Assembly: GCA_014360755.1 (NCBI GenBank)
Contig: JACIWX010000003.1
Location: 283,678 to 347,677, forward strand
DNA: 64,000 nt
Direction of reading: 5' to 3'
Source: Chloroflexota bacterium
GTDB taxonomy: Bacteria > Chloroflexota > Anaerolineae > UBA2200
The notes under the pieces: generated by a model
What the model was told of the DNA's origin: nothing
Seen by the model: only the letters and a program-made list of their open reading frames with translations
The model's database searches: none
Translations under genes and position numbers: made by a program
Part shown: one piece after another, positions 21,845 through 59,412 of the stretch
Layout: each line of letters starts with the position of its first letter
Position numbering within the stretch: position 1 is the first letter of the stretch

Positions 21845-21861
21845 TCAGGTTAGGTGAAAAA

Positions 21862-33410: not shown

Positions 33411-33411
33411 C

Positions 33412-43030: not shown

Positions 43031-44899
43031 ATGATCGTTGAAGTCAAGTCCCCAGTACCGAGCGATATTGAAATTGCTCAGGCAGCTAAGCTGCGACCTA
43101 TCCGCGAGGTGGCCGAAGAGTTGGGCCTCTCAGAAGATGACCTTGACCTCTATGGCAAGTACAAAGCCAAGGTCCATCTAGACGTGCTAGAGCGCCTGAA
43201 GGACCGCCCCAACGCCAAGTACATTGATGTAACCGCCATTACCCCCACCCCGCTTGGCGAAGGGAAAACGGTAACCACCATCAGCCTCAGCCAAGGCCTG
43301 CACTATATCGGCAAGAAAGTCTTCACCTGCATCCGGCAACCCTCACAAGGTCCCACCTTCGGCATCAAGGGAGGTGCGGCCGGCGGTGGTTATGCCCAAA
43401 TCGTCCCAATGGAAGACTTTAACTTGCATCTCACCGGCGATATCCATGCCGTAGGTGCAGCCAACAACTTGCTTGCTGCTGCCATTGATGCCCGCATCAT
43501 GCACGAGGACGAGATGAGCGATGAGAGGCTGCTCAAAGCCCTCTGCCCAGATGACAAGTTCGCCCCGTGGATGTATAAGCGGCTCCAGAAGCTGGGCATC
43601 CAGGCGGAAAAACCATCCGACCTGAGTCCAGAGGACCGGCGGCGCTTCGCCCGTCTGGACATTGACCCCTACAGCATTACTCTAAACCGCGTCATTGACA
43701 TCAATGACCGCGCGATCCGCAATGTGGTTATTGGCTTGGGCACCAAAGGCGACGGACGGCCTCGCCAGACCGGCTTTGATATCACGGTCGCAAGCGAAGT
43801 GATGGCCATCCTGGCTTTGGCTACCAGCCTAAAGGACTTGCGTGAACGCATCGGGCGTATGGTCATCGGCACGGACAAGAACCGTAATCCGATCACAGCT
43901 GAGGACTTGGGCGTGGCTGGCGCCATGACGGTTCTACTCAAGGATGCGCTGATGCCTAACCTGATGCAGACCTTGGCAGGTACCCCCGCTTTCGTGCACG
44001 CCGGGCCATTTGCCAACATTGCCCACGGCAATAACTCGATCATCGCGGACATGATTGGGCTGAAACTAGTCTCAGGCGGCTACTTGGTCACAGAATCCGG
44101 ATTCGGTGCGGACTGTGGCATGGAGAAATTCTTCGACATCAAGTGCCGCTACAGCGGGCTGATACCCAACTGCGTGGTGATGGTCGCCTCCATCCGTGCT
44201 CTGAAGATGCACGGCGGTGGTCCGAGAGTGGTTGCAGGCGTGCCCCTGAACCCAGCATATAAACAAGAGAACCTCGAGTTGCTAGAAAAGGGCCTTTGCA
44301 ACCTAGAAGCCAATATCAAGATCGCCCTCAAATTCGGCATCCCTGTCGTAGTAAGCATTAACAAGTTCACTACAGATACGGACAGAGAGATCGCCCTCGT
44401 AAAAGAGGCGGCCATAGCTGCTGGCGCAGAAACGGCTGTGGTCAATGAGGGTTGGGCGAAAGGCGAGGCGGGTGCTGCTGAATTGGCTGAAGCTGTGGTG
44501 GCCGCCTGCGAAAAACCCAGCAACTTCCGATTCCTTTACCCGCTGGATATCCCAATCAAGGACAAGATCGAGATCATCGCCAAAGAAATCTATGGTGCTG
44601 ATGGCGTCATCTTTGAAGCGGCAGCCCAGCAAAAAATCAAACTCTATACCGAACTCGGGTACGACAAACTGCCCATTAATATGGCTAAGACGCACCTATC
44701 ACTGTCTCACAACCCAGATTGGAAAGGTGTGCCCAAGGGCTATATGCTGCCCGTGCGCGATATCCGGGCCTCGGTCGGCGCAGGATTCCTATATCCGCTC
44801 TGCGGAGCCATGCGCACCATGCCCGGACTGCCATCTCGCCCAGTGTTCATGGACATTGACATTGACGTAGAGACTGGCAAAGTCATCGGACTTTCATAA
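43031..44899 (+). CDS. fhs: formate--tetrahydrofolate ligase
   Basis: [24 protein letters not shown]-loop and 623-aa length. ATG at 43031 after AAAGGAGG. Confidence 0.9.
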
Positions 44900-44911
44900 G
44901 CCTTTGGGAAG

Positions 44912-44946
44912 AGAGGTGGAGGAGTAATGCTCCTCCACCTCTTTGG
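44912..44946 (+). terminator. putative intrinsic terminator after fhs
   Basis: 13-bp perfect stem AGAGGTGGAGGAG / CTCCTCCACCTCT with loop TAATG, followed by a short U tract (TTTGG). Confidence 0.45.
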
Positions 44947-44964: not shown

Positions 44965-44992
44965 TTCAAAACGCACTTATCTGCTGTATAAT
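44965..44992 (+). promoter_or_regulatory. putative sigma70 promoter of the acs (CODH/ACS) operon
   Basis: TTCAAA (44965-44970), 16-bp spacer, perfect TATAAT (44987-44992), about 70 nt upstream of the first gene's GTG. Confidence 0.45.
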
Positions 44993-45064: not shown

Positions 45065-45403
45065 GTGCCAGTGGGAAAAGTAGTTTTCGATGTGCCGAAA
45101 ATGTACGCCGATCACCACGTTGAGGCAGTGCGCAAGGCTCTGCTAGCATTGCCGGGCATTGAGGAGATTATAGCCAGCAGCGCCCTAAAGCGCGTGGTGG
45201 TTCGTTACGATACAGAGCGCCTCAACCCAGGCGCAATCGAACAAGCCTTGCAGGCTGCAGGGTATGCGCCAGGAGAGGAGTGGGAACTACCCAAGTTACC
45301 GGAAGGCAAAGAAGACCATTCTCCATGGTTCCAGGTCATCCCAAGGGTAACGACAACGGATAGGCGCGATCTGGAGATGTCCGGAGATTTCCGAAAATAT
45401 TAA
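45065..45403 (+). CDS. HMA-fold (ferredoxin-like beta-alpha-beta-beta-alpha-beta) small protein lacking CxxC; candidate metallochaperone of the acs operon
   Basis: GTG start 5 nt after GAAGGAGGGG. VVFDVPKMYADHHVEAVRKALLALPGIEEI...VVVRYDTERLNPGAIEQALQAAGYAP matches heavy-metal-associated domain topology with M-T-C-x-x-C replaced by M-Y-A-D-H-H. It is the first gene of the operon, directly upstream of cooS. Confidence 0.5.
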   Translation: MPVGKVVFDVPKMYADHHVEAVRKALLALPGIEEIIASSALKRVVVRYDTERLNPGAIEQALQAAGYAPGEEWELPKLPEGKEDHSPWFQVIPRVTTTDRRDLEMSGDFRKY

Positions 45404-45446
45404 ATTTTGCAGTTGCTTGAGATTTCATGAGAAGGAGCAAGATCCG

Positions 45447-47414
45447 ATGACAGACCAAAAATCTATAGACCCAGCGGTGTGCGATTTGCTGGAGATATGT
45501 GAATCCGAAGGCATTTCCACCGCTTTTGACCGCGCAGAGCAGATGAAACCATGCCCGATTGGTAGCAAAGGGGCTTGTTGCAAGAACTGCGCCATGGGTC
45601 CCTGCCGTCTCACCAAAGAGGGCCAAGTAGGCATTTGCGGAGCTACCATTGACACCGTCGCAGCGCGCAACTTTGCACGCATGGTTGCGGCTGGTTCGGC
45701 TGCCCATTCCGACCACGGTCGGGACATGGCGTTGACTCTTTTGGCAGCGGCTACAGGGCATGCTCCAGATTACAAGATACGCGATGTGCGCAAACTCTAT
45801 GAGGTTGCCTCATTCCTGGACGTGAAAACAGATGGCCGCCCAGTCAATGATATCGCTAAGGAGGTGGCTGAGAAGGCGCTGATTGAATTTGGCCGCCAGC
45901 AAGGGAATATCATCTACCTCCAACGCGCACCGCGTAAGCGTCAGCAAATTTGGCAAAACCTGGGCATTGCCCCACGCGGGATTGACCGCGAAGTGGTGGA
46001 TATCATGCACCGCACCCATGCTGGAAACGATCAGGATTATAAGAGTTTGCTGATGTCCTCGCTGCGCACTGCCCTGGCTGACGGCTGGGGTGGTTCGATG
46101 CTTTCCACCGACATTACGGACATCCTCTTTGGCTCTCCTGTGCCGCTTGCGGCCAGGGCGAACATGGGCAACCTTAGCGAAGACCAGGTGAACATTGTCG
46201 TCCATGGCCATGAGCCAACCCTGTCCGAAATGATCCTAGTGGCGGTCAATGACCCGGAGATGATCGAATATGCTAAATCCAAGGGCGCCAAAGGCATCAA
46301 CCTAACCGGCATTTGTTGTACCGCCAACGAAACGTTGATGCGTCAGGGCGTGCCCACTATTGGCAATTTCCTCAGCCAGGAACTGGCAATTGCCACCGGT
46401 GCGATAGACCTGATGGTGGTGGATATCCAGTGCATCATGCAAGCCTTGGCTCCTCTGACCAAGCAGTTCCATACCCTCTTGGTGACCACTTCTGCAAAGG
46501 CGCACATTGACGGTGTTACTCATATCGAATTCGACGAGCACCGCGCTCTGGAAATTGCCAAGAATATCGTCAAAATGGGCATTGACAATTTCGTCAACCG
46601 CGGGGATGTGCATATTCCCAAAGATATTGACCAAATGGTCGTTGGTTTCTCACACGAGTATATCAACTACGCCTTGGGCGGTTTTTACCGTGGTTCCTTC
46701 CGTCCCTTGAATGATGCCGTCATCCAGGGGCGGCTGCGCGGCGTTGCGGGGGTGGTGGGGTGCAATAATGCGCGCACTTGCCAGGATGCAGCCCATACGT
46801 ATATTGTGCGCGAACTGATCAAGAACGATGTGCTAGTCGTGATGACTGGGTGCGGAGCAATCGCTTGCGCCAAATATGGCTTCCTGTCTCCGGAGGCAGC
46901 GCAGTACGCCGGACCAGGCTTGCGCGAGATCTGCGAGGCGGTGGGCATCCCGCCGGTGCTGCATATGGGCAGTTGCGTGGATAACACGCGTATCCTCACT
47001 GTGCTCAGCCAAATGGCCACCGAAGGCGGCTTGGGCGAAGACATTGCTGACATCCCAGGCGTTGGCTTTGCCCCGGAATGGATGAGTGAAAAAGCTATTT
47101 CCATTGGTTGTTACTTTGTCGGTTCTGGCGTATACACCATCTTTGGCAGCGAATCGCCTGTAGCCAACAGCCCCGCTGTGGTGCGCTTTATGAGCGAGGG
47201 TTGGGAAGAACACGTGGGCGGCAAGTTGGAATTTATCCCTGATCCAGAGGAAGCCGTCCGCAAAGCCTTGGAGCACATTGATAAGAAACGCGCTGCTCTA
47301 GGGTTAGTAGAGTACGACCCCACACGTTATGGTCAGAGCGGCGATGCGCTTATGCTCAAGCTGCTAGAGAAGGTAGAAGAGGGGACGCTCAACCTATACA
47401 GCGCCAAGTTATAG
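45447..47414 (+). CDS. cooS: carbon monoxide dehydrogenase catalytic subunit (Ni,Fe-CODH; AcsA/CooS)
   Basis: N-terminal B- and D-cluster Cys (CPIGSKGACCKNCAMGPCR) and C-cluster ligands (HGHEP..., CTGC...). 655 aa. ATG at 45447 after GAGAAGGAG. Confidence 0.9.
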   Translation: MTDQKSIDPAVCDLLEICESEGISTAFDRAEQMKPCPIGSKGACCKNCAMGPCRLTKEGQVGICGATIDTVAARNFARMVAAGSAAHSDHGRDMALTLLAAATGHAPDYKIRDVRKLYEVASFLDVKTDGRPVNDIAKEVAEKALIEFGRQQGNIIYLQRAPRKRQQIWQNLGIAPRGIDREVVDIMHRTHAGNDQDYKSLLMSSLRTALADGWGGSMLSTDITDILFGSPVPLAARANMGNLSEDQVNIVVHGHEPTLSEMILVAVNDPEMIEYAKSKGAKGINLTGICCTANETLMRQGVPTIGNFLSQELAIATGAIDLMVVDIQCIMQALAPLTKQFHTLLVTTSAKAHIDGVTHIEFDEHRALEIAKNIVKMGIDNFVNRGDVHIPKDIDQMVVGFSHEYINYALGGFYRGSFRPLNDAVIQGRLRGVAGVVGCNNARTCQDAAHTYIVRELIKNDVLVVMTGCGAIACAKYGFLSPEAAQYAGPGLREICEAVGIPPVLHMGSCVDNTRILTVLSQMATEGGLGEDIADIPGVGFAPEWMSEKAISIGCYFVGSGVYTIFGSESPVANSPAVVRFMSEGWEEHVGGKLEFIPDPEEAVRKALEHIDKKRAALGLVEYDPTRYGQSGDALMLKLLEKVEEGTLNLYSAKL

Positions 47415-47498
47415 ATTCAATAACCCGCCAGCTTTCGATCTGATGATGTAGCCTGCTGGCGGAAACCACCCTAATCAACGGAGAGAAGGAGAGCATCT

Positions 47499-49781
47499 AT
47501 GTCAAGGTATATTGCAACCCGTGCTATTCGCGGCGCGAATCTGATCGTTGCCGAAGCCGAGAGGATGCTGAAAGAGGCTATTGCAGAACTGGGGCCAGAT
47601 ACGCCGGTCAAATTTACCAACACCGCTTATTATCTCCCCGTTATCCTGGCTTTCACCGGGCGTGAGGTGAGCAAACTGGGTGACCTTGTGCCCGTTATTG
47701 AGGATGCAAAGCGGATTTTACATCCTATCCCGGGCGATAAACTGTGGTTACCCTACCTTGGCGAGACGCTGGACTGCGGTATGGCCACGCTCCTCGCTGA
47801 GGAAGCCATCGAGGGCATCCGCTTCGCGCGTGGTCTGGAGCCACAACCGATTACCTGGGAGGGCAGTTATATCCCCAGCACCAGTTTCACCTCCCCTGAT
47901 ATGGAAGCACAAGCCGGGAAGCGCCTCAATGGGCCTATTGATGACATTCAATTGCGCGCTTGGGGCATTCAACTGGTAGATGGCCGCATGCCCGGCTTTG
48001 CTGCGATCGTTGGCTGCGCCAAGAGCAATGAAGTAGCAGTGCAAATTGTGCGCGAACTGCAGCAGCGCAACATCCTCGTCTTCCTGTGTGGCAACGTCAA
48101 TGGACGCAGTATTATCCACCAATTGATGGAAGAAGGGGTCGAGATGGGTTATGACACCTATATCATCCCCTTCGGTACGGACACCATCGCTGCGATCTAC
48201 CCTCTCGGTTTTGCCGCACGCAGTGCACTGACCTTTGGCGGGCTGAAACCAGGCCAGGCGCGCGAAATCCTCCTGTATAACAAGTACCGTGTTTTCGCCT
48301 TTGTGTTAGCCCTGGGTGAAGTAGATGACCTGAAATACGCCACTGCTGCAGGTGCAATTAACTATGGCTTCCCGACGATTGCCGATACCGTGATCCCCCA
48401 GATATTGCCTACCGGCGTTACAACCTACGAGCATGTCATCAGCATGCCCTTTGATGACATCGAGGGGAAAGACGACCTGGAACGTGCGAAGAAGCTGGTG
48501 CAACGCTGCATCGAAGTGCGCGGGGTGAAAATTAAGATCACCGAAGTGCCCATTCCCGTGCCCTATGGTTCTGCCTTTGAAGGCGAACGTGTGCGCAAGG
48601 CAGATATGCGCGTGGAATTTGGCGGCAAGTACAGTCGCTGCTTCGAGTACTTGAAGATGTCCGACTTTGACGCGGTGGAAGATGGCAAGATCACCGTGGT
48701 CGGGCCCGGTTTCGAAGATGTGCCGCCAGAGGGTTCGATGGACATGGGCATTGTGGTCGAAGTAGCCGGGCGCAAAATGCAGGAGGACTTTGAGCCTGTG
48801 CTGGAGCGGCAAATTCACTACTTCATCAATGGCGCATCTGGCATCCAGCACATTGGCCAGCGCGATATCGCCTGGATCCGCATCAGCAAAGCGGCAGCAG
48901 AGAAGGGCTTTAAGCTGGAACACTTTGGGAAAATTCTGTATGCCCGCTTCCATGGGGACTTTGGCGCCATTGTGGACAAAGTGCAGGTTACCATCTACAC
49001 TGACAAAGCCAAGATGGAGGAGTGGCTAGCGAAAGCACGCGAAGCCTACGATCGCCGCAACAGGCGTCTGGCAGATATGACTGATGAGTCGGTAGAAGAA
49101 TTCTACAGTTGTACTCTGTGCCAGAGCTTTGCCCCCAACCATGTCTGCGTTGTGTCACCAGAACGACTGGGGCTGTGTGGCGCGTACAACTGGCTGGATT
49201 GCAAAGCCTCCCATCAGATTAACCCTACCGGGCCGAATCAACCCATCCGAAAAGGTACTTGCGAGGACCCTGTTTATGGCATTTTCAGCGGGGTGAATGA
49301 ATTCGTATACCAGCATTCTCATCAGTCCGTGCAGCAGGTTTCCATGTACTCCATCATGGTGAACCCCATGACCGCCTGCGGCTGCTTCGAATGCATTGCG
49401 ATGGTCATCCCCGAAGCCAATGGCATTATGGTCGTTTCCCGCGAAGACCCGAGCATGACCCCTGCTGGCATGACCTTCTCCACGCTGGCTGGCATGGCGG
49501 GTGGTGGATTGCAGACACCTGGCGTGATGGGGCATGGCAAGTATTATCTGACAAGCAAAAAGTTCATTTCTGCGGATGGTGGCTTCAAGCGCGTGGTTTG
49601 GATGTCTTCCTTCCTCAAAGAGACCATGGCTGAGGAGCTCAAGGCGGTTGCCGAGCGCGAGGGCGACCCAGATCTCATTGACAAGATCGCTGATGAACGG
49701 GTAGCGACCACTGTAGATGAGTTATTGCCCTACCTGGAGGAGAAGGGGCATCCTGCGTTGACCATGCCGCCGTTGTTCTAA
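47499..49781 (+). CDS. acsB: acetyl-CoA synthase (CO-methylating acetyl-CoA synthase complex beta subunit, AcsB)
   Basis: 760 aa. A-cluster Cys-Gly-Cys region (...CGCFEC...) and the conserved ACS N-terminal domain. Confidence 0.9.
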   Translation: MSRYIATRAIRGANLIVAEAERMLKEAIAELGPDTPVKFTNTAYYLPVILAFTGREVSKLGDLVPVIEDAKRILHPIPGDKLWLPYLGETLDCGMATLLAEEAIEGIRFARGLEPQPITWEGSYIPSTSFTSPDMEAQAGKRLNGPIDDIQLRAWGIQLVDGRMPGFAAIVGCAKSNEVAVQIVRELQQRNILVFLCGNVNGRSIIHQLMEEGVEMGYDTYIIPFGTDTIAAIYPLGFAARSALTFGGLKPGQAREILLYNKYRVFAFVLALGEVDDLKYATAAGAINYGFPTIADTVIPQILPTGVTTYEHVISMPFDDIEGKDDLERAKKLVQRCIEVRGVKIKITEVPIPVPYGSAFEGERVRKADMRVEFGGKYSRCFEYLKMSDFDAVEDGKITVVGPGFEDVPPEGSMDMGIVVEVAGRKMQEDFEPVLERQIHYFINGASGIQHIGQRDIAWIRISKAAAEKGFKLEHFGKILYARFHGDFGAIVDKVQVTIYTDKAKMEEWLAKAREAYDRRNRRLADMTDESVEEFYSCTLCQSFAPNHVCVVSPERLGLCGAYNWLDCKASHQINPTGPNQPIRKGTCEDPVYGIFSGVNEFVYQHSHQSVQQVSMYSIMVNPMTACGCFECIAMVIPEANGIMVVSREDPSMTPAGMTFSTLAGMAGGGLQTPGVMGHGKYYLTSKKFISADGGFKRVVWMSSFLKETMAEELKAVAEREGDPDLIDKIADERVATTVDELLPYLEEKGHPALTMPPLF

Positions 49782-49911
49782 ATCAGAGTGGCAAGCTTGG
49801 CTCCCACACTGCACTTCATCTACGGAGTAAGAGGAGCCCAGGCAGCGTGAAAATCATATCGCCTAGACACGGTACACTGCTAAGTTTGAAAAATCTAAGG
49901 AGATGTAGAGA

Positions 49912-50298
49912 ATGGCTGAATTCGTTAAGGATCTGATGCGTCATGGGGCTGTTACTTGTGGTTTGGATACCACCGTTAAAGAAATTGCCCAAATCATGGT
50001 GTTTAACCGCATTCGCTATGTCGTTGTAACGGATGATCATGGAGCCGTCGCTGGCATTATCTCAGCGCGCAGTATTCTGAAGGCATGGGGCAAAGATTTG
50101 GAAAAGACCACGGCAAAAGATATCCTTCTACCGTACACGATCACGACCACTCCTGACACACCTCTTGCAGAAGCCATTAAGCTCATGCAGCAGAGGCGTA
50201 TCCAGCATTTAGTTATTGTCAGCGACAGCCCACGACCCAAGCGAGTGGTAGGTATCTTGAGTGCTTCCGATATTGTCCGGTATATGGCCAGAACCTAA
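49912..50298 (+). CDS. CBS-pair domain protein (paralog 1 of 3)
   Basis: Two CBS motifs (VTCGLDTTVKEIAQIM...RYVVVTDD; ...HLVIVSD...VGILSASDIV). Confidence 0.75.
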   Translation: MAEFVKDLMRHGAVTCGLDTTVKEIAQIMVFNRIRYVVVTDDHGAVAGIISARSILKAWGKDLEKTTAKDILLPYTITTTPDTPLAEAIKLMQQRRIQHLVIVSDSPRPKRVVGILSASDIVRYMART

Positions 50299-50347
50299 AA
50301 AACCGATAGAGAGATGGAGTGCAAATAGGCTCATGATGGAGGAGAAA

Positions 50348-50764
50348 ATGGCTTTGGTTAGAGATTATATGCATCGTGGAGTGATCACTTGCCATTTGGA
50401 CACTCCGGTCAAAGAAATTGCCAAGATTATGGATGCCAATAACATCCGCAGTGTAGTGGTTACCGATGACCGTGGTGAAGTGTGGGGGATTGTTTCACTC
50501 ATCAGCATCCTCAAAGCGTGGGGGAAAGACTTGGAAAAGCTGACCGCCGAGGATATCCTGCAACCATACACCGTTACTATTTCCCCAGAGTCGCCGATCG
50601 AAGAGGCAGTAAAACTGCTGCAGAAGAAAAGGATCGAGCACTTGGTGATTGTTCATCCTGGAGTGGTGCGGCGAGCCGTGGGCATTCTCACGACCTTTGA
50701 CATTATTCAGCACATGGCTGGGATGCCTGCAGGTACCTACCGCGCAAGTATGCAATTGGGATAA
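50348..50764 (+). CDS. CBS-pair domain protein (paralog 2 of 3)
   Basis: About 55% identical to paralog 1 (MALVRDYMHRGVITCHLDTPVKEIAKIM...). ATG at 50348 after GGAGGAG. The ORF-track start at 50261 overlaps paralog 1. Confidence 0.7.
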   Translation: MALVRDYMHRGVITCHLDTPVKEIAKIMDANNIRSVVVTDDRGEVWGIVSLISILKAWGKDLEKLTAEDILQPYTVTISPESPIEEAVKLLQKKRIEHLVIVHPGVVRRAVGILTTFDIIQHMAGMPAGTYRASMQLG

Positions 50765-50817
50765 CAAGGCGATCGAGAAGGGATTGCTCGAGGGTTTTGG
50801 ATGAAGGGAGCAGGGTT

Positions 50818-51243
50818 ATGGCAATGAACGCAAAAGAAAAAATGATGGAAAAGCGAGTGGAAGATGTCATGCACTATGGCGTGATCACTTGCCGCACGGA
50901 CACCCTGCTGAAAGAGGTGGTGCGCATCATCACAGACACTGATGTGCATGCCCTGGTTGTCATCCACGACAATGGCAATGTTGCTGGCATCGTCTCACAC
51001 ATGGATTTGCTCCGGCTGTACGGCCACAACTTGCTCGAATACAAGGCAGAGGACGTGATGACGCCCAATGTCATTACCATCAGCCCAGAGGCAACTGTCA
51101 AAGAAGCGGTGGACTTGATGCTGAAGCACAATATCCGCCGGCTCCTGGTCACGGAAAAGACACCCGAGGGCGAGCGCCCCATAGGCGTGATATCCACAAC
51201 TGATGTAATCAGGGACATGCGCGAGCAGCCCTGGTTTTGGTAA
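50818..51243 (+). CDS. CBS-pair domain protein (paralog 3 of 3)
   Basis: Same architecture (VEDVMHYGVITCRTDTLLKEVVRII...). ATG at 50818 after GAAGGGAG. Confidence 0.7.
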   Translation: MAMNAKEKMMEKRVEDVMHYGVITCRTDTLLKEVVRIITDTDVHALVVIHDNGNVAGIVSHMDLLRLYGHNLLEYKAEDVMTPNVITISPEATVKEAVDLMLKHNIRRLLVTEKTPEGERPIGVISTTDVIRDMREQPWFW

Positions 51244-51308
51244 AAGGAGAGGCAGGATGCAGGATGATATCCTGCATCTTGTATCTTTGGGAAAGGAGAC
51301 ATTGCACA

Positions 51309-52277
51309 ATGCCCATGGCAGTAGAAATCCCGAAAGAGAAATGGACAGGCAAAGTTAGAGAAGTAAAATTGGGTGCGACCGCTGCCGAAGGAGGCACGCG
51401 GCAAAAGACCGTAACGGTGGGCGGAGAGAGTACCCTACCCTTTCTCACGTTCGAAGGGGATATGCCCAATCCACCTGCTATTGCCGTCGAAGTACAGGAT
51501 CGCTATCCCAGTGACTGGTCTGCCGTCCTGAAAGCAGCGTGGGGAGATGTCCTGAATGACCCCGCCGCTTGGGCAAAAAAGGCGGAAGAATATGGTGCCG
51601 ATATCGTTGCCCTCAAACTGCAGAGTGCCCACCCTGAGGCTGGCAATACAGACGCGGCACATGCTGCCGCCACGGTAAAGGCAGTACTGGCTGCCACCGG
51701 GCTGCCTTTGATTGTCTATGGCCCAGGACAAGCCGAGAAGGACAATGAAGTATTGGTAGCCGCCGCAGAAGCGGCAAAGGGCGAGCGCATTGCCTTGGGC
51801 AACTGCGAGGACAAAAACTATCGCACTATCGTAGCGGCAGCCCTAGCACATGGCCACTTAGTGGTCGCCAAGACCCCTATTGACGTCAACCTAGCGAAAC
51901 AATTGAATATCCTCATTAGCGATATGCGCTTGGATCTCGACCGGATCCTGATGGATCCAACTACGGGTGCGTTGGGCTATGGCTTGGAATATACGTACTC
52001 GGTTATGGAGCGCCTTCGCTTGGCGGCGTTGACCGGCGACAGCATGACCCAGCAGCCAATGATCTGCACGGTGGGCGAAGAAGCCTGGCGTGCCAAAGAG
52101 AGCAAGGTGAACGAGGGCGTGCCTGCTGCCTGGGGGGATTGGGAGCGCCGCAGCAAGAATTGGGAAGTGCTTACTGCCAGCACGCTGATCCAGGCAGGAG
52201 CGGACATCGTCGTGTTGCGCCATCCGGAAAGCATCCAGTTAGTCAAACAAGCCATTTCGCAGTGGATGGCGCGGTAA
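51309..52277 (+). CDS. acsD: corrinoid iron-sulfur protein small subunit (CODH/ACS delta subunit, AcsD)
   Basis: TIM-barrel CFeSP small-subunit family (KLGATAAEGGTRQKTVTVGGES...). It precedes acsC. ATG at 51309 after GGAAAGGAGA. Confidence 0.8.
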   Translation: MPMAVEIPKEKWTGKVREVKLGATAAEGGTRQKTVTVGGESTLPFLTFEGDMPNPPAIAVEVQDRYPSDWSAVLKAAWGDVLNDPAAWAKKAEEYGADIVALKLQSAHPEAGNTDAAHAAATVKAVLAATGLPLIVYGPGQAEKDNEVLVAAAEAAKGERIALGNCEDKNYRTIVAAALAHGHLVVAKTPIDVNLAKQLNILISDMRLDLDRILMDPTTGALGYGLEYTYSVMERLRLAALTGDSMTQQPMICTVGEEAWRAKESKVNEGVPAAWGDWERRSKNWEVLTASTLIQAGADIVVLRHPESIQLVKQAISQWMAR

Positions 52278-52355
52278 GGGATCACTCTTTGCTCCCCTAT
52301 CTGCAGAAGGCACTCACTTGCGAGCACTTATCATCCACAGACAAGGAGTAAAAAT

Positions 52356-53702
52356 ATGGGACTGAGCGGGCTTGAAATTTACAAGCTGTTACCCAAAACC
52401 AATTGCAAAGAATGCGGCCAGCCTACTTGCTTGGCTTTTGCGATGAAATTAGCCGCCAAGCAGGCTGAACTGTCGGCTTGCCCTTACGTTTCTGAAGAAT
52501 CAAAAGCCAAACTTGCAGCCGCCGCCGCCCCGCCAATTCGCTTGGTCACAATTGGCACAGGGGACAAGAAATTGGAAATCGGCAATGAAACCGTGCTCTT
52601 CCGCCACGACAAAACCTTCTACCATCCGCCGGGACTGTTCATCCGCCTCAAAGATACCATGCCGCTTTCAGAGTTTGAGGCAATGGTGGAACGCATCCGT
52701 GACTGGGGAGTCGAACGGGTTGGCATTCCACTGTGGGTAACCGGCGTGGCGGTCGAAAATACGTCAGGTGATGCAGAAACTTTCGCCAAGTACGTCGCTG
52801 TAGCGCAGGAGAAAATGGCGCGGCCGCTCGTTCTTATCGCTTCGAACCCCGCTTCTATGGCTGCAGCCCTGCAACAGACAGATGGTTCTGCCCCTCTGGT
52901 CTATGCTGCCACGGCGGACAACTGGCAAGCAATGGCGGAATTGGCTGCGAAGCACAAAGCGCCCATTGCAGTGCGGGGCAATGGCGATCTGGGTGGGCTG
53001 GCAGATCTGGCGGAAAAAGTCAAGGGCGCGGGCGTGGAGGACATCGTCCTCGATCCGGGCATTCGTGATCCGCACGGCACACTGGTAGCGCTCACCCAGT
53101 TGCGCCGCCTCGCCTTGAAGAGCAACTTCCGCCCCCTGGGTTATCCGATTATCACCTTCCCCGGTGAAGGGGCAAATTCCGAAGAGGAAGAAGCCATTCA
53201 GGCTGCCCAGCATATCGCCAAATATGCGGGTGTGATTGTCCTCGATCACTTTGACCCAGCCACGGTCTACCCGCTGATGACACTGCGGCAAAACATCTAT
53301 ACCGACCCGCAAAAACCCATCCAAGTGAGCCCTGGCCTGTACGAGATCTCCAATCCTACTCCCGATTCGCCGCTGCTGGTGACCACCAATTTCTCCCTCA
53401 CCTATTTCAGTGTCGCAGGCGAGGTAGAGGGAAGCGGAAAGCCCACCTGGTTGCTCATTGTGGATTCGGAAGGCATGTCGGTGCTAACTGGCTGGGCTGC
53501 GGGGAAATTTGATGCGGAGAAAATTGCCAAGTCAGTACAGCAGTTCAACGTGCCCAGCAAAATTAGCCACAAGAAAATTGTTATCCCCGGCCTCGTGGCG
53601 AGCATCTCGGGTGAATTGGAGGAGGAACTGCCCGGCTGGGAAGTCCGTGTTGGGCCACGTGAAGCGATAGACATACCTGCTTACCTAAAGACTTGGAACT
53701 GA
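52356..53702 (+). CDS. acsC: corrinoid iron-sulfur protein large subunit (CODH/ACS gamma subunit, AcsC)
   Basis: N-terminal [4Fe-4S] motif (CKECGQPTCLAFAMKLA...CP) and 448-aa length. Confidence 0.85.
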   Translation: MGLSGLEIYKLLPKTNCKECGQPTCLAFAMKLAAKQAELSACPYVSEESKAKLAAAAAPPIRLVTIGTGDKKLEIGNETVLFRHDKTFYHPPGLFIRLKDTMPLSEFEAMVERIRDWGVERVGIPLWVTGVAVENTSGDAETFAKYVAVAQEKMARPLVLIASNPASMAAALQQTDGSAPLVYAATADNWQAMAELAAKHKAPIAVRGNGDLGGLADLAEKVKGAGVEDIVLDPGIRDPHGTLVALTQLRRLALKSNFRPLGYPIITFPGEGANSEEEEAIQAAQHIAKYAGVIVLDHFDPATVYPLMTLRQNIYTDPQKPIQVSPGLYEISNPTPDSPLLVTTNFSLTYFSVAGEVEGSGKPTWLLIVDSEGMSVLTGWAAGKFDAEKIAKSVQQFNVPSKISHKKIVIPGLVASISGELEEELPGWEVRVGPREAIDIPAYLKTWN

Positions 53703-53748
53703 TTGGCTAGAGTTTTTCATGACCAAATCCCAATGATCAGACTCCATA

Positions 53749-54834
53749 TTGGAGTCTGGTCATTGGGAGTCCTACTCGGGAGCAGAGTCCGTGCTATATT
53801 TTGTGTCCGTAAAGTTAGCCCTGGGCTATCTGCTTTTCTCCTTCCTGTCCGCCCTAGGGATCCTGCAGTTGGTTGCTACGCGTTATCGTTTGCGCGGCTT
53901 GGCTTTTCTCGATCATGCGCAGCACGGCGCGAAAGGTTACGCCCTGGCTGCATTGCTGATCGTCTGCGGGGCGTTGCTCTTTTTCGCAGGGCAATGGCAC
54001 GCTATTCTCACGCCAGGACCGGCCGGTAGCGAACTGGCTTTCCTTTTTGGACTCAGCGCCACGGGAGCGCTAGCGGTTACCTGTATTGTTACATCCATTG
54101 TACAAAAACGGCGTCCTGGTTTCCTGACACAAGCCATTACTGACCAAGGCGAGACAGTAACGGTCGGACGTGGAACAGGACGCCTTTACCTACCACATAA
54201 CCTGAACGCTCCTGCACCTGCTGTGGTCCTTGTGCCAGGTTTGAACAACAATGAAGGGGACCTCACGATCCTGGCACACCAAATGGCAGAGGAGGGCTTC
54301 GCTGCGCTGGTGATTTGCCTGGATAGAGGATCGTGTTTGTATCCGGAGGTACTGACCATTGTGCCAGCAGCCATATCCATGCTTAGTAAGCGACCTGAAA
54401 TAGATGAACAGCGGCTGGGCATTGTAGGGCATGGTTTGGGCGGGGATCTCGCTATCCGCGCAGCGAGTACGGATAAGCAAATCAAAGCAGTGGCGGCTTT
54501 GGCTCCTGTCCTTGTGGAGGTGCAGCCAAGCCTGGATTTGTTGCGCGAAATGCCCTATCTAGAGGCATTGCGCTGGGCACGAGACCGGAGCCGCGCTAAC
54601 TTGCGCGCTGCATTGAACGCGCTCGAATACGGAAGCAGGATTGCTCCTAGGTCCTTCCTCCTGTTGTATGGAGCAGAGGACCGCTTGGTAAGCAGAACAC
54701 CCACGGAAGCGTGGCAAGCGCAACAAGCCACCTCCATGCGTTTGGAAGTGATCGAAGGTGTGGGGCATTTTGATCTGGTAAAGCATCCGGTAGCGGTGCG
54801 AGTCCTGATACAGTGGTTGAGGGAGCATCTGTAA
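53749..54834 (+). CDS. membrane-anchored alpha/beta-hydrolase-fold protein (nucleophile elbow reads GHGLGG; possible pseudo-hydrolase)
   Basis: 3-4 N-terminal TM helices, then an alpha/beta-hydrolase core (VVLVPGLNNNEGD...LGIVGHGLGGDLAIRAA...GVGHFD). The Gx-S-xG nucleophile position appears to be occupied by Gly. Confidence 0.55.
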   Translation: MESGHWESYSGAESVLYFVSVKLALGYLLFSFLSALGILQLVATRYRLRGLAFLDHAQHGAKGYALAALLIVCGALLFFAGQWHAILTPGPAGSELAFLFGLSATGALAVTCIVTSIVQKRRPGFLTQAITDQGETVTVGRGTGRLYLPHNLNAPAPAVVLVPGLNNNEGDLTILAHQMAEEGFAALVICLDRGSCLYPEVLTIVPAAISMLSKRPEIDEQRLGIVGHGLGGDLAIRAASTDKQIKAVAALAPVLVEVQPSLDLLREMPYLEALRWARDRSRANLRAALNALEYGSRIAPRSFLLLYGAEDRLVSRTPTEAWQAQQATSMRLEVIEGVGHFDLVKHPVAVRVLIQWLREHL

Positions 54835-54838
54835 ACGC

Positions 54839-55417
54839 ATGGCTATTGATTGGGCTCTGTTTCAATTCGCCAATGGGCTGGCAGGCCGTTCGCCTATTCT
54901 CGATCGCATCATCCAGATACTCATGAATGACTATGCCTTGACCACGGCGATGGTGCTGGTGCTGTTTGCGTTGTGGTTCAGCGGCAGCAGTCTAGAAGCA
55001 CGAGAGCGGAATCAGCGTGCTGTGCTTTCCACTATCGTTGCCGTTTTGCTGGCTAACCTTATCGTCAAGGCATGCAACTTGATCTTCTATCGGCCGCGTC
55101 CTTTTGCCTATCACGAGGTAACGCTGCTGTTCTACCATCCATCGGACTCTTCTTTTCCCAGCAACGCGGCTACGGTGGGCTTCTGCATTGCGGCTTCTGT
55201 CTGGCTGTTTAACCACAAGGCGGGCTTTCTTTTGTACACCCTGTCTTGTCTGCTTGCCCTGGCACGGGTATGCGGCGGCGTGCACTATCCCAGCGACATC
55301 CTGGGTGGGCTGTTGGTCAGCACGTTTTCCGCATGGCTAGTGATTAGGAAATGGCACTTCCTAGACCGCTGGTGGATGGCGATCATCCACTGGCTACGAC
55401 GCTGGTTATTGGCTTGA
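54839..55417 (+). CDS. PAP2-superfamily (type 2 phosphatidic acid phosphatase-like) membrane protein
   Basis: Motif I-like KACNLIFYRPRP and motif III ARVCGGVHYPSD (R-x5-H-x3-D) are present. The motif II position reads FPSNAA instead of PSGH. Confidence 0.6.
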   Translation: MAIDWALFQFANGLAGRSPILDRIIQILMNDYALTTAMVLVLFALWFSGSSLEARERNQRAVLSTIVAVLLANLIVKACNLIFYRPRPFAYHEVTLLFYHPSDSSFPSNAATVGFCIAASVWLFNHKAGFLLYTLSCLLALARVCGGVHYPSDILGGLLVSTFSAWLVIRKWHFLDRWWMAIIHWLRRWLLA

Positions 55418-55434
55418 GGCATACGTTACGCAAG

Positions 55435-57414
55435 ATGAAGAACGCTGGTACACACGCAACAGGGCTACAGGAGGCGAAGTACCACATTGCCTTCAGACCC
55501 GACGCAAAAATGGTTACGGTGCCTGAAGGGACGCTGTTGAGCGATGCCATCGCTCAAGCAGGCATCCGCTTCAACCTGCCCTGCGGGGGACAGGGGCGGT
55601 GTGGCCGCTGCAAGGTTGTCGTGGAAAAGGGCGAGGTCAAGCGGCGCGGTACCAGCCGACTGTCAACCGTAGAACTGGAGCAGGGTTACGCCTTAGCCTG
55701 TCAAACGATGGTTTACGACGACTTGCAAGTCTTTATCCCGCCTCAGGAAGCCATCCTGCGCCGCTTGCCCAGTGAGAAAGCGGCAGCTGAAATTCCGACT
55801 TTGCCCGTAGAATGCGATTGGCAAAGCAATCCGATTGTGCAAAAGTTTTTCCTCACCATCGAGCCCCCCAGCCTTTCCGATAATACGACTGATTTTGAGC
55901 GCTTACAACGCGAACTGGCAAAGCAGTACAACATCAGGAACATCGTCGCCGGCCTGCCGGTGCTGCGCAAGTTGGCACGGACACTGCGCGAATCGGAAAA
56001 GGAAAGCCAAGGTTGGCAAGTCACCGCGGTGCTCGAAATGGGCTCTTGGCTGGACGAGGACGCGCCACCGCGTTTGATAGACCTGCGTCCAGGGGATCAC
56101 ACAGGGCGTACCCTAGCCGTGGCTGTGGACATTGGCACGACCACCAATGTGGTCTATCTGGTAGATTTAGCGAGTGGTAAATTTATCGACAGCGCAGCAG
56201 CCTACAACGCACAGATATCCTGTGGTGAAGACATCATCTCGCGCATCCTTTATGCCAGGAAAGAAGGCGGGCTGGAACATCTGCAAAGGCTTGTCGTTGG
56301 GACCATCAATGAACTGTTGCATGAACTGGCTGAACGCAACCGGATTGACCTGAGCGAAATCTATGCCATGACTGTTGCCGGCAACACCACGATGATCCAT
56401 CTATTCCTCGCCCTCGACCCATCCTTCATTCGGCTGGAACCTTACATTCCAACCATCAATCATCCCCCACCGGTGCGCGCTGCTGAGCTGGGCATCCATA
56501 TCTGCCCGGAAGCGCCGGTGGATTGCTTGCCTAGCGTAGGAGCGTATGTCGGCGGGGACATTACCGCGGGCGTGCTCAGTTCAGGCATGTTCAAGACCGA
56601 TACACTGACCCTTTTCATTGACGTGGGCACCAACGGCGAGATCGTATTGGGCAATGCTGATTGGCTCATCTGTTGCGCTTGCTCAGCAGGGCCTGCTTTT
56701 GAAGGCGCCGGTGTCCATTCAGGCATGCGCGCTACAGTGGGCGCTATCGAAGAAGTATGGATCAACGCCCAAACCTACGAACCCACATATCAGGTCATTG
56801 GCAACGTGCCCCCACGTGGCATCTGCGGCTCAGCCATGATTTCACTGCTGGCGGAAATGTTCATCACCGGCATTATAGACAAATCGGGCCGCATCAATCG
56901 CCATCTCAATACCCCGCGCATACGGATGGGAGAGCATGGCCCGGAATATGTGGTAGCCTGGGCGAAGGAGACGCGTAACCAAGAGGAAGACATTGTCTTG
57001 ACGGAAGTGGACATCTCTAATCTCATCCGCGCCAAGGGCGCCATTTACGCCGGCTTCTCCGTGCTGACTGCCAGCGTAGGTATTGACTTGGCTGATGTAG
57101 AACAGGTGCTCATCGGTGGCGCTTTTGGCAAGTACATTGACGTCGAAAAAGCGATTCAGATTGGCTTGCTGCCGGACATGCCCTGGGAGCGCTTCAAGTA
57201 TCTGGGCAACACATCCGTCTTGGGGGCTTTTACCGCTTTGCTTTGCCGGGATATGCGACGCGAAGTGGTCGAGATTGCCCGGAAGATGACCTATCTAGAA
57301 CTGAGTGCCGACAACCGTTTCATGGAACAGTTCACTTCGGCATTGTTCTTGCCGCACACCGACATGACTGCTTTCCCCTCGGTGCTGCGCTTGCTGGACC
57401 AGCAGGGGAAATAG
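55435..57414 (+). CDS. corrinoid activation/regeneration protein (RACo-like: N-terminal [2Fe-2S] plant-type ferredoxin + ASKHA ATPase)
   Basis: CGGQGRCGRCKV [2Fe-2S] motif, then a large ASKHA-fold region (AVDIGTTTNVVYL..., ...AGNTTM...). The start is ambiguous; ATG at 55435 is chosen. Confidence 0.7.
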   Translation: MKNAGTHATGLQEAKYHIAFRPDAKMVTVPEGTLLSDAIAQAGIRFNLPCGGQGRCGRCKVVVEKGEVKRRGTSRLSTVELEQGYALACQTMVYDDLQVFIPPQEAILRRLPSEKAAAEIPTLPVECDWQSNPIVQKFFLTIEPPSLSDNTTDFERLQRELAKQYNIRNIVAGLPVLRKLARTLRESEKESQGWQVTAVLEMGSWLDEDAPPRLIDLRPGDHTGRTLAVAVDIGTTTNVVYLVDLASGKFIDSAAAYNAQISCGEDIISRILYARKEGGLEHLQRLVVGTINELLHELAERNRIDLSEIYAMTVAGNTTMIHLFLALDPSFIRLEPYIPTINHPPPVRAAELGIHICPEAPVDCLPSVGAYVGGDITAGVLSSGMFKTDTLTLFIDVGTNGEIVLGNADWLICCACSAGPAFEGAGVHSGMRATVGAIEEVWINAQTYEPTYQVIGNVPPRGICGSAMISLLAEMFITGIIDKSGRINRHLNTPRIRMGEHGPEYVVAWAKETRNQEEDIVLTEVDISNLIRAKGAIYAGFSVLTASVGIDLADVEQVLIGGAFGKYIDVEKAIQIGLLPDMPWERFKYLGNTSVLGAFTALLCRDMRREVVEIARKMTYLELSADNRFMEQFTSALFLPHTDMTAFPSVLRLLDQQGK

Positions 57415-57478
57415 TCTACAAACCATAACAAAGTATGGTATTATCTATTATTGAACACATTGGGAGAGAGAAGCGAAC

Positions 57479-58243
57479 ATGACGATGACCATTGCAGTCG
57501 CTGGAAAAGGTGGCACGGGCAAAACTACCTTTGCCGCGCTGCTGATTAAATACATACGTTCCCGGAACCTGGGTTATATCCTAGCCATTGATGGGGACCC
57601 CAGTGCTAACCTGAACCTGGTGCTGGGCATGGATCTTCCAGACACCATTGGCCACATCCGCGAGGACACACTGGCGCAGATCAGCCGGGGTCGTTACGAT
57701 ACGTCTATCCCTAAGGCAGATTTTTTCGAGTACCGCATCAACGAGGCATTAGCGGAGGGGGATAGGATAGACCTGATTGCCATGGGCCGCCCAGAAGGGC
57801 CTGGTTGCTACTGTGCTGCGAATAGCATCCTGCGCACCGTGATTGACCGCCTGGGCAATCAATATGACTTTGTGGTGATAGACAACGAAGCAGGATTGGA
57901 GCACATCAGCCGCCAGACCACACGCGATGTAGACAAGTTGTTCATCGTTACGGATATGACCATGCGCGGTATTGCTGCCGCCGGGCATATCGTACGCCTT
58001 ATCAAGGAACTGGGCACACGTGTTCATGAAACGTACCTAGTGATCAATCGGGCGGAGAGCGATATCCCCCCGTTGATGCGGGAGGAAATCGCACGGCTTG
58101 GGTTGAACCTCATTGGCACGTTGCCCCAGGACAGGACGATCACTGAGTTCGACTTGACGGGCAGGCCGTTGATCGAGATCAGCGAAGAGTCCCCCATTTA
58201 CAAGGCAGTGACAGAAATCGCTGCCAAAGCAGGCATTCGCTGA
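57479..58243 (+). CDS. cooC: CODH nickel-insertion accessory ATPase CooC/AcsF
   Basis: Deviant Walker A AVAGKGGTGKTT, MinD/ParA fold and CxC-like GPGCYCAAN motif. 254 aa. Confidence 0.85.
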   Translation: MTMTIAVAGKGGTGKTTFAALLIKYIRSRNLGYILAIDGDPSANLNLVLGMDLPDTIGHIREDTLAQISRGRYDTSIPKADFFEYRINEALAEGDRIDLIAMGRPEGPGCYCAANSILRTVIDRLGNQYDFVVIDNEAGLEHISRQTTRDVDKLFIVTDMTMRGIAAAGHIVRLIKELGTRVHETYLVINRAESDIPPLMREEIARLGLNLIGTLPQDRTITEFDLTGRPLIEISEESPIYKAVTEIAAKAGIR

Positions 58244-58326
58244 GCAGTCTGCATCTTGATAGCAACGAAACCTTTCATCACATAAATGGCAGGATACGCA
58301 ATACGTAATACAAAAAGGAGGATCAC

Positions 58327-59247
58327 ATGCTGATTATCGGCGAGAATATCCATATCATCTCCCCAAAGGTCAAGGCTGCCTTCGAGACCCGGGACAGCAA
58401 GTTCATCCAGGAACTGGCCTTGCGGCAGGTGGAGCACGGCGCAGACATGCTCGACCTGAACATCGGGCCACAGAGAAAGCGCGGCGTGGAAGTGATGGAG
58501 TGGATCGTGGACGCGGTGCAAGAAGTTACGGATGTACCCCTCTCGCTGGACACCACCAATGCAGCGGCGATCGAGGCTGGCTTGAAACGGGTCAAACGTC
58601 AGGCGATGATCAATTCTACCTCAGCTGACCCAGAGCGGCTGGAGACCATTATGCCACTGGCAGCCAAGTACAATGCCAAGATCGTTGCTTTGACCATGGG
58701 CAAATCGGGCATCCCCACGACCGCCGAGGCACGCATAGAACTGGCGATGGAAGTATTAATCCCCAAAGCCATGGAACTGGGTATACCGATGTCCGATCTG
58801 TACCTTGATCCACTCGTGCTCACAGTCAATGGGACGCAAGAACATGCGCCACACACGTTGAATGCAGTGCGCTTCTTCAAGCAGCTCACCGATCCGCCAC
58901 CCATGACTGTGGTTGGCCTCTCCAACATCTCCAACAGCGTTCCAGCAGAAAACCGCAGCCTGATCAATCGCACCTTCTTGGTCATGCTGATGGCTGCTGG
59001 CCTGGACGCAGCCATTGCGGACCCGTTGGATAAGAAGCTGAACGAATATATACGCATCGTGCAACAACGTGACACAAGCACAGGCCTGGGCAATTTGCTC
59101 GTAACACTCTACGACAAAACAGCGGCTATGGAAGAGCTCGAACCTTCCGATGTGGACATGGGCGACCCAGAACAGGTAGCTGTTTGGAAGACCACGCAAA
59201 TCCTGTACAACAAGGTCATCTACGCGCATTCGTATCTGCGCATGTAG
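58327..59247 (+). CDS. acsE: methyltetrahydrofolate:corrinoid/iron-sulfur protein Co-methyltransferase
   Basis: Pterin-binding TIM barrel (IIGENIHIIS...DMLDLNIG...NSTSADPE). Last gene before the terminator. Confidence 0.85.
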   Translation: MLIIGENIHIISPKVKAAFETRDSKFIQELALRQVEHGADMLDLNIGPQRKRGVEVMEWIVDAVQEVTDVPLSLDTTNAAAIEAGLKRVKRQAMINSTSADPERLETIMPLAAKYNAKIVALTMGKSGIPTTAEARIELAMEVLIPKAMELGIPMSDLYLDPLVLTVNGTQEHAPHTLNAVRFFKQLTDPPPMTVVGLSNISNSVPAENRSLINRTFLVMLMAAGLDAAIADPLDKKLNEYIRIVQQRDTSTGLGNLLVTLYDKTAAMEELEPSDVDMGDPEQVAVWKTTQILYNKVIYAHSYLRM

Positions 59248-59347
59248 GCACGCGCAAACCGTAAATAGCCCTCAATTGCGCGACAAGCTGGCAGATAAGT
59301 ACTGTCACTTGCTTGTCATACTTATGCACAATAATCAGCTGCGCTGA

Positions 59348-59386
59348 AAGCCCTGGCCAAAGTATGACCAGGGCTTGTGTTTCTTC
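59348..59386 (+). terminator. intrinsic terminator of the acs operon
   Basis: 9-bp stem AAGCCCTGG / CCAGGGCTT with an 11-nt loop, followed by GTGTTTCTTC. Confidence 0.6.
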
Positions 59387-59412
59387 ACCGCTTGGGCAAA
59401 ACGTGGTATAAT
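59384..59412 (+). promoter_or_regulatory. putative promoter (TTCACC-N17-TGgTATAAT) of the aminotransferase operon
   Basis: Extended -10 TGgTATAAT at 59404-59412, about 95 nt upstream of ATG 59506. Confidence 0.45.

Follow-up and report, generated by a model that had tools for sequence, protein, structure and literature searches.

The 64,000-nt stretch of DNA analysed here (the window; contig JACIWX010000003.1, positions 283,678 to 347,677, assembly GCA_014360755.1) comes from an uncultured bacterium of the Anaerolineales (Chloroflexota) and carries a genuine bacterial operon for carbon monoxide dehydrogenase/acetyl-CoA synthase (CODH/ACS). The core of this acs operon is ordinary. Interleaved with it are genes for an HMA-like protein, for three CBS-pair proteins, for a protein with three transmembrane helices (3-TM) and an alpha/beta-hydrolase fold (ABH), and for a PAP2-like membrane protein. 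ABH and PAP2 together are one two-gene module, which is widespread and occurs also far from acs operons. We explain the region as a scaffold operon with a regular HMA-like member, optional CBS genes, and a portable ABH-PAP2 module that would have an envelope- or lipid-type role and not provide CODH/ACS subunits, and give this explanation a probability of about 0.62.

ABH and PAP2 form one portable membrane module

ABH (window positions 53791-54834, start refined; Pfam matches PETase, AXE1 and DLH) and the PAP2-like protein of the LpxE/BcrC type (54839-55417; 192 amino acids (aa); Pfam PAP2, 59.4 bits) are encoded between acsC and the gene of RACo, the reductive activator of corrinoid protein. 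The PAP2 gene starts 4 nt past the ABH stop codon, and its ribosome-binding site (RBS) lies inside ABH. The gene orders of related loci (L001 and following numbers) were derived by tblastn, and PAP2 directly follows ABH in every locus with a readable next gene (L001, L003-L006, L008-L011, L014, L016, L089-L095, and L105).

A profile of the 3-TM domain only, searched against 1.84 billion representatives, recovered 320 cluster representatives, about half of which are ABH-type fusions; the others stand alone and have about 125-150 aa. The stand-alone proteins have three TM helices and a C-terminal amphipathic helix, GLDxLRxxTYxQAL, which matches the cap helix LDLLREMPYLEALRWAR of ABH. Four of the five stand-alone genes examined (L097, L099, L100, and L103) are followed by a PAP2 gene of 191-198 aa, with a spacing of 4-6 nt or an overlap and in unrelated genomic contexts; at the fifth locus, L096, a 1.2-kb contig, a truncated 64-aa open reading frame (ORF) follows that is 51% identical to the PAP2 N-terminus. 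Neighbours of the stand-alone module include PlsY, class-IV aminotransferase (Aminotran_4), GT4, PIG-L, and CpsB genes. Downstream of Aminotran_4 and PlsY, the protein P0429 joins the 3-TM and PAP2 domains in a single chain and thus represents a Rosetta-stone fusion. ABH-PAP2 pairs themselves also occur outside acs clusters, at L105 and at L089, where the order is sigma70, ABH, PAP2, HSP20, and Lon. As the module is also found far from acs operons, it is improbable that ABH and PAP2 belong to the enzyme complex. No description of a pair of a 3-TM protein and a His-deficient PAP2-like protein was found in the papers searched.

Motifs and relatives of the two membrane proteins

ABH consists of three N-terminal TM helices, an invariant loop (W..I..PGPAGSE), and an alpha/beta-hydrolase fold, and is 100% identical to NCBI MBC7232982.1. 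Its AlphaFold2 (AF2) model has a predicted local distance difference test (pLDDT) score of 84.8 and a Foldseek match to 7QJM of 9.8e-15; the hydrolase profile match is 2e-19. In public databases, the alpha/beta-fused 3-TM proteins are named acetylxylan esterase or dienelactone hydrolase. With the DLH/AXE1/PETase group, including the Chloroflexus hydrolase 7QJM and PA2218 (2HDW), ABH shares the fold and the Asp (triad acid) and His of the triad. These residues, D311 and H340, are invariant in a 22-sequence alignment (A1), and across a set of 85 sequences D311 is Asp in 81, Glu in 1, and a gap in 3, and H340 is His in 81 and a gap in 4.

ABH differs from this group in its N-terminal 3-TM domain, in the cap helix common to the stand-alone 3-TM proteins, and in an Asp or Gly instead of the nucleophile Ser. 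In the column aligned to the Ser of 7QJM and 9PJB, the 85 sequences have Asp (73), Gly (11), or Arg (1) and never Ser; the window protein reads GHGLGG, with Gly and thus neither Ser nor Cys at the nucleophile position. Mean pairwise identity is 57% in the 3-TM domain and 49% in the alpha/beta domain, the former being the better conserved. The positive-inside rule predicts a cytoplasmic location for the alpha/beta domain.

The best PDB match of the PAP2-like protein is Aquifex LpxE (6EBU, 3.7e-07), and the public names of the PAP2 partners are undecaprenyl-diphosphatase (BcrC) or generic PAP2 phosphatase. LpxE and the BcrC/YodM group resemble it in size (about 190 aa) and in the C3 motif R-x5-H-x3-D, which is ARVCGGVHYPSD in the window and is found in 119 of 120 close homologues; LpxE likewise is without the C2 His. 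Unlike these relatives, proteins of the window type have PSN[A/P] as C2, a displaced C1 Lys, and always a 3-TM partner gene. C2 is PSNA in the window, not PSGH. DSSFPSN[A/P] is found in 115/120 homologues, and the C2 His in none of the 118 where the motif was located. In C1, the R-P is present (YRPRPF), an Asn is aligned to LpxE K73, and a conserved Lys stands three residues earlier (K-x7-RP).

PAP2 partners elsewhere also lack the C2 His, and some are without the C3 His as well. It is replaced by Phe, Ala, or Cys at L097:6399-6980, L099:652-1227, L103:3095-3688, and L104:6001-7080. These C3-His-less partners of the stand-alone or fused 3-TM protein are probably pseudo-phosphatases. Since some partners lack this residue, phosphatase chemistry is not universally conserved in the pair. 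Most Chloroflexi are not known to have lipid A, so the substrate of the PAP2-like protein probably differs from that of LpxE.

LpxT and PmrR offer a parallel, namely a PAP2-family enzyme under the control of a small membrane peptide; PmrR has about 30 aa and is encoded elsewhere. In both systems a PAP2-family membrane protein has a dedicated small membrane partner. The 3-TM protein is not homologous to PmrR, however, and its gene is always immediately upstream of the PAP2 gene or fused to it.

The idea that both membrane proteins are dead enzymes was softened. Aquifex LpxE has no C2 His (PSGD), yet is active on lipid A 1-phosphate, undecaprenyl diphosphate (C55-PP), and phosphatidylglycerol phosphate (PGP) (PMC6581854), and Asp is a legitimate nucleophile in some alpha/beta-hydrolases. 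The PAP2 motifs would face outward, as in LpxE and BcrC (PMC6581854). This orientation bears on the idea that the pair acts on the corrinoid cofactor, perhaps by removing a phosphate from a cobamide precursor of the corrinoid Fe-S protein or by remodelling it. Its position beside the corrinoid protein and its activator is the one point in favour of such a role, whereas cobamide assembly is cytoplasmic and the motifs are predicted to face the other way; the module is moreover found without corrinoid genes nearby. We regard a role in cobamide metabolism as very improbable.

The scaffold of related acs clusters

Two samples of related clusters were available. Sample 1 holds 8 genome loci obtained via ABH with a single strict peptide pattern and gives no frequencies. 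Sample 2 holds 80 metagenome loci chosen solely by AcsC similarity (51-80%) and is unbiased with regard to extra genes. The scaffold HMA-like gene, cooS, acsB, CBS (where present), acsD, acsC, hairpin, RACo, cooC, and acsE is typical of a large family that is mostly uncultured. In sample 2, the gene 3' of acsC is RACo in 38 loci, cooC in 6, ABH in 5, and acsE in 3. CBS genes, one or several, separate acsB from acsD in 10 of 52 loci of this sample, and an HMA-like gene is found upstream of cooS in 20 of 27. AcsD identity in relatives is 78-87%. In acs clusters, ABH-PAP2 is confined to loci whose AcsC shares 68% or more identity with that of the window, and L012 and L013 in that range are without ABH. 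The pair defines a clade of acs clusters, which the genome loci place in Anaerolineales.

In Moorella thermoacetica and Carboxydothermus hydrogenoformans, the acs order is acsA, acsB, acsC, RACo, acsF/cooC, acsD, and acsE. These clusters and the window share seven core functions, all co-oriented in a single cluster, but the window has acsD before acsC, both upstream of RACo, is led by the HMA-like gene, and has CBS, 3-TM/alpha-beta-fold, and PAP2-like genes interleaved. The acsD-then-acsC order had been given in the preliminary description of this DNA and is borne out by the ORFs; being the family norm, it is no more special to this genome than the leading HMA-like gene.

ABH- or PAP2-like genes are not known from the Moorella and Carboxydothermus clusters. 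The claim that these two classes are absent from model acetogens thus agrees with established knowledge, and they are absent from 47/52 related clusters as well. What did not survive the comparison is the view of four independent oddities, as ABH and PAP2 are one module and the HMA-like (20/27) and CBS (10/52) genes are common in this type of cluster. Embedded CBS, HMA, PAP2, or hydrolase genes were not described in the literature searched on acs clusters and Chloroflexi acs operons.

Other lineages have different small inserts at the same junctions, which indicates that these junctions tolerate insertion. A four-helix-bundle protein is encoded between acsC and RACo in another lineage (L020:10442-11191 and L065:10334-10837); it is similar to 23S rRNA intervening-sequence proteins and has N-terminal Gly/Glu/Arg-rich repeats. 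At the same place in a third lineage (L067:10363-10632 and L070:10756-11031), a conserved Cys-rich protein of about 90 aa (…CLQCPSPSPCTEAC…) is found, which could be a further acs accessory gene. At L016:2011-2898, acsB appears to have an intein-like (Hint) insertion, CFTRDAEVFID...HSYYANQVLVKNC, followed by a normal AcsB C-terminus. Two ABH-containing relatives (L090:1-3006 and L092:124-924) are without the HMA-like gene, and NuoE/NuoF-like and 2Fe-2S/4Fe-4S ferredoxin-domain genes precede their cooS.

The RACo-cooC junction is occupied in many Anaerolineales relatives. In L090 (13703-16565), L095 (13610-16458), and also L091, two genes of polytopic PMT/PMT_2 (GT-C) glycosyltransferases, whose stop and start codons overlap, are located there. 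Homologous PMT_2-type ORFs are present at this junction in L001 (13752-16594) and L004, and gaps of about 2.9 kb are seen in L003, L008, L009, and L011. The window contains no PMT/PMT_2 genes.

Selection and age of the embedded genes

The frames of the embedded genes are intact, and their ratios of nonsynonymous to synonymous substitution (dN/dS) are 0.06-0.23. Compared with L002, dN/dS is 0.135 for ABH, which is thus under purifying selection, and 0.033 for acsC; for PAP2 it is about 0.15-0.22. Synonymous divergence is near saturation in all comparisons but that with L002, and the values for L003 ABH and L095 cooS were excluded as artefacts of gapped high-scoring segment pairs. The GC content of ABH and PAP2, overall and at third codon positions (GC3), matches that of the neighbour genes. 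Judged by these figures, ABH and PAP2 are functional, old at the acsC-RACo position, and evolving about four times faster than the core enzyme. A recent horizontal insertion of the pair was rejected, as GC3 is like that of the neighbours and the orthologues are deeply diverged.

The preliminary description had named a recent, possibly neutral insertion as the alternative that absence of the extra genes from all close relatives would point to; gene content compared across related clusters shows the insertions to be conserved. Some observations would suit recent, selectively neutral insertions or decaying passengers, namely the CBS copy number, which ranges from 0 to 3 among close relatives, and the unrelated four-helix-bundle and small Cys-rich inserts at the same junctions in other lineages. 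On the other hand, orthologues of ABH, PAP2, HMA, and CBS3 are found at identical positions in many relatives, and the intact frames, low dN/dS, and neighbour-like GC3 have already largely refuted neutrality, which we therefore consider scarcely credible.

A cysteine-free HMA-like protein upstream of cooS

The first gene of the operon (45065-45403) encodes an HMA-like protein of 112 aa (PF00403, 37.9 bits; cut-off 24.8) and ends 13 nt 5' of cooS, a placement that is kept down to 37% identity. The protein is a regular member of the scaffold and not peculiar to this genome. Its AF2 model has the beta-alpha-beta-beta-alpha-beta ferredoxin-like fold, with pLDDT of about 90 over residues 1-65, and a C-terminal extension of about 45 aa with the conserved end EMSGDFRKY follows. 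It has no cysteine, and MYADHH stands where the metal motif MxCxxC would be expected. Among 120 homologues, 108 have the MYADHH motif and 111 are Cys-free.

Databases name the protein CopZ or "heavy-metal-associated domain-containing protein", and the fold is indeed shared with the CopZ/HMA metallochaperones. It differs from these in being Cys-free, in D-H-H at the metal-loop position, in the EMSGDFRKY-ended extension, and in the genomic tie of its gene to cooS and not to P-type ATPases. Most likely, the HMA-like protein would have a part in metal (nickel) delivery or handling during CODH or ACS maturation. No paper tying a Cys-free HMA-type protein to CODH was found in the literature searched. 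Located 5' of cooS in about three quarters of the clusters of this family, this Cys-free DHH protein of the HMA fold is a concrete candidate for a CODH/ACS maturation factor.

CBS-pair proteins between acsB and acsD

Three CBS-pair genes separate acsB from acsD: CBS1 (49912-50298; 128 aa; two CBS motifs, 2.5e-26), CBS2 (50348-50764; 138 aa; CBS 1.2e-24; start refined to an ATG with RBS at 50348), and CBS3 (50818-51243; 141 aa; CBS 1.2e-27; start refined). Each has two tandem stretches of CBS motif in Pfam. CBS1 is a paralogue of CBS2, and CBS3 belongs to a separate lineage. In L004 and L010, orthologues of CBS1 (73-82% identity) and CBS2 (76-78%) are present. Orthologues of CBS3 (59-83%) are found immediately 5' of acsD in L001, L003, L005, L007, and L009.

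The number of CBS genes varies among relatives, from none (close relatives L006, L008, L090, and L092) through one of the CBS3 type (L001, L003, L005, L007, and L009) and two of the CBS1/2 type (L004 and L010) to three (L095). Distant clusters such as L037 and L049 have a single CBS-pair gene right before acsD. The CBS proteins are thus optional, facultative accessories. They are generic Bateman modules whose best PDB matches are 1e-17 to 1e-12, and they share two CBS motifs with stand-alone CBS-pair proteins such as MJ1225 (3KH5) and MJ0100; compared with proteins of that type, the window proteins have no fused effector domain. Segments of the S/T-x-x-D type can be read in them, and they probably sense an adenosyl ligand. 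The suggestion of the preliminary description that they couple activity to adenylate or S-adenosylmethionine levels is plausible. A position of CBS-pair genes between acsB and acsD was not described in the papers searched.

CBS3 (50818-51240) also matches CBS chains of recent large PDB complexes (9sr9_H, 9znf, and 9zni; 1e-16 to 1e-12). One of these is labelled "Dehydrogenase" (392 aa) and the others "CBS domain-containing protein", with numeric chain ids.

Operon layout and the hairpin after acsC

By ORF listing and Pfam scan, the operon consists of 13 genes, all on the plus strand and each with a Pfam match above the gathering score. All genes named in the preliminary description (cooS, acsB, acsD, acsC, RACo, cooC, acsE, and the extras) were recovered in this way. 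The core set is complete, with Ni-CODH, ACS, both corrinoid Fe-S protein subunits, RACo, a CooC-type ATPase, and the methyltransferase. Behind the HMA-like gene follow cooS/acsA for the Ni-CODH subunit (45417-47414; Prismane, 1.9e-168, 561.8 bits) and acsB for the acetyl-CoA synthase subunit (47499-49781; CODH_A_N, CdhC with 391.9 bits, and ACS_CODH_B_C with 218.5 bits). The corrinoid Fe-S protein is encoded by acsD for the small subunit (51309-52277; CdhD family, FeS domain absent; start refined) and acsC for the large subunit (52356-53702; FeS and CdhD, 9.1e-101). Downstream of the module are RACo (55435-57414, likely from the ATG at 55435; Fer2, RACo_linker, Raco_middle, and RACo_C_ter), the cooC/acsF-type maturation ATPase (57479-58243; CbiA/AAA_31/NifH-like P-loop), and acsE for the methyl-tetrahydrofolate (methyl-THF):corrinoid methyltransferase (58327-59247; Pterin_bind, 1.3e-23).

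At the pattern level, the limits of the operon are convincing. The 5' boundary is formed by the fhs terminator hairpin (44910-44944, plus strand), a 16-bp GC-rich stem right after the fhs stop codon. In the 165-nt gap between fhs and the HMA-like gene, a promoter-like site, TTCAAA-16-TATAAT (44965-44992, plus strand), fits 10/12 consensus positions as a pattern match only. On the 3' side there is a terminator-like hairpin (59348-59388, plus strand), GCCCTGG...CCAGGGC with the T-rich tail TTGTGTTTCTTC. A TG-extended promoter-like site for the next gene (59384-59412, plus strand), also a pattern match, is located downstream of the acsE terminator. Scanned with Rfam over its full length, the window shows no riboswitch or leader within or ahead of the operon, and a T-box and two tRNAs elsewhere.

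The acs operon is presumably transcribed as one mRNA. A single promoter-to-terminator unit had been proposed, and the end limits fit this; what had gone unseen is a strong internal hairpin between acsC and ABH (53728-53768, plus strand), with which the single transcription unit carries a caveat. The hairpin has a perfect 19-bp stem and a minimum free energy z-score of -5.5, and 0/200 shuffles fold equally well. It is followed by GAGUCCUACUCGGG and has no U-run, so that it lacks the form of an intrinsic terminator. Most related loci, whether they have ABH or not, have comparably strong hairpins of unrelated sequence 3' of acsC, and some of these, as in L012 and L040, are canonical hairpin-plus-U terminators. 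Probably, the post-acsC hairpin is an attenuator or mRNA-stability element and marks a conserved step-down in expression from the abundant structural subunits to the distal genes.

Alternatively, the hairpin would terminate transcription and ABH, PAP2, RACo, cooC, and acsE would have an unrecognised promoter of their own. Its perfect 19-bp stem and the canonical terminators at the same place in L012, L040, and other related loci speak for two such units. The window hairpin has no T-run, however, and no promoter-like site was detected within 53703-53790; the gap between acsC and ABH is just 88 nt with an RBS immediately 5' of ABH, and RACo, cooC, and acsE are required along with the upstream genes. 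Two transcription units therefore seem unlikely to us, though they are the alternative we would take most seriously.

Proposed origin and role of the module in the operon

The conserved core of the module is the 3-TM protein and the His-deficient PAP2-like protein, a pair whose neighbours are often phospholipid or envelope genes. As we picture it, a version with an inserted cytoplasmic alpha/beta-fold domain landed at the acsC-RACo junction in an ancestor of the Anaerolineales clade. The landing site would lie distal of the strong intra-operon hairpin and thus in the lower-expression part of the operon. Purifying selection would have kept the module there, with two PMT_2 (GT-C) genes nearby in many relatives. 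ABH-PAP2 would then most likely serve the envelope, in the metabolism of membrane lipid phosphates or polyprenyl phosphates, and be co-expressed with acs. The direction of the change in the alpha/beta-fold domain (gain or loss) is one that we infer, as are the biochemical roles proposed from sequence for all four embedded classes.

Several points weigh against a portable module in a scaffold operon with a nickel-handling HMA-like protein. About 19 of 21 ABH-type (alpha/beta-fused) loci examined lie within acs clusters, and so strong a linkage could stem from a true functional tie as well as from operon inertia. As the loci come from searches by ABH or AcsC similarity, non-acs copies may be under- or over-sampled. 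The nickel role of the HMA-like protein is proposed from its position and its His motif. The hairpin at 53728-53768 could, finally, be a full terminator with an unrecognised downstream promoter.

The linkage speaks for a rival proposal, by which ABH and PAP2, together with PMT_2 in relatives, would hold the soluble CODH/ACS-corrinoid system at the membrane or regulate it there, the alpha/beta domain serving as a non-catalytic docking surface. Nearly all alpha/beta-fused ABH genes examined are between acsC and RACo, the module was retained while AcsC diverged to 68% and ABH to 29% identity, the alpha/beta domain is predicted to be cytoplasmic, and its nucleophile position, Gly in the window and never Ser, is consistent with a scaffold. 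Yet 47/52 related acs clusters work without the module, the PAP2 motifs are predicted to point outward, and it is the 3-TM domain, not the alpha/beta domain, that is better conserved. That the membrane proteins anchor the complex, as the preliminary description had suggested, is further weakened by the many unrelated, non-acs contexts of the core module, by its fusion in P0429, and by the ABH-PAP2 pairs outside acs at L089 and L105. A membrane tether thus appears rather improbable, though it keeps some likelihood for the alpha/beta-fused version, whose examined loci are overwhelmingly linked to acs.

Surroundings of the operon

Upstream of the operon are a MvhD-fused oxidoreductase gene with metV and metF (31317-35000), fchA (40998-41621), folD (41645-42601), and fhs (42989-44899). 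This agrees with the preliminary description, which had placed metF/metV, fhs, fchA, and folD upstream and noted the lack of formate dehydrogenase; none was found among the window ORFs scanned. The oxidoreductase (31317-33410) is a 697-aa GltD/HdrA-like NAD(P)/FAD protein fused to 4Fe-4S domains and a C-terminal MvhD (FlpD). Directly 5' of metV-metF, it is likely an electron-input module for methylene-THF reductase.

Elsewhere in the window, a T-box leader (102 bits; 20764-20997, minus strand) is located upstream of a 659-aa minus-strand ORF (18901-20880), and two tRNA genes are found at 21764-21933 (plus strand). Directly 3' of alaS, a 502-aa protein (28059-29567) has a weak Baseplate_J-like match (6.9e-07); a place beside alaS is an odd setting for a phage-baseplate-type domain.

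Implications

To Wood-Ljungdahl biochemistry, the core operon contributes no novelty. It is also conceivable, at a likelihood that we put low, that the recruited membrane module couples CODH/ACS to the membrane physically or metabolically and that the DHH-type HMA-like protein is an unrecognised Ni-CODH/ACS metallochaperone. Such a coupling might, for example, localise acetyl-CoA synthesis at sites of lipid or envelope synthesis.

Genes can stay for long inside a conserved metabolic operon without encoding subunits of its pathway, which calls for caution in genome interpretation. Two leads stand out as most useful: the DHH-type HMA protein, a candidate maturation factor, and the pair of the 3-TM and PAP2-like proteins, which represents a widespread, undescribed membrane module.

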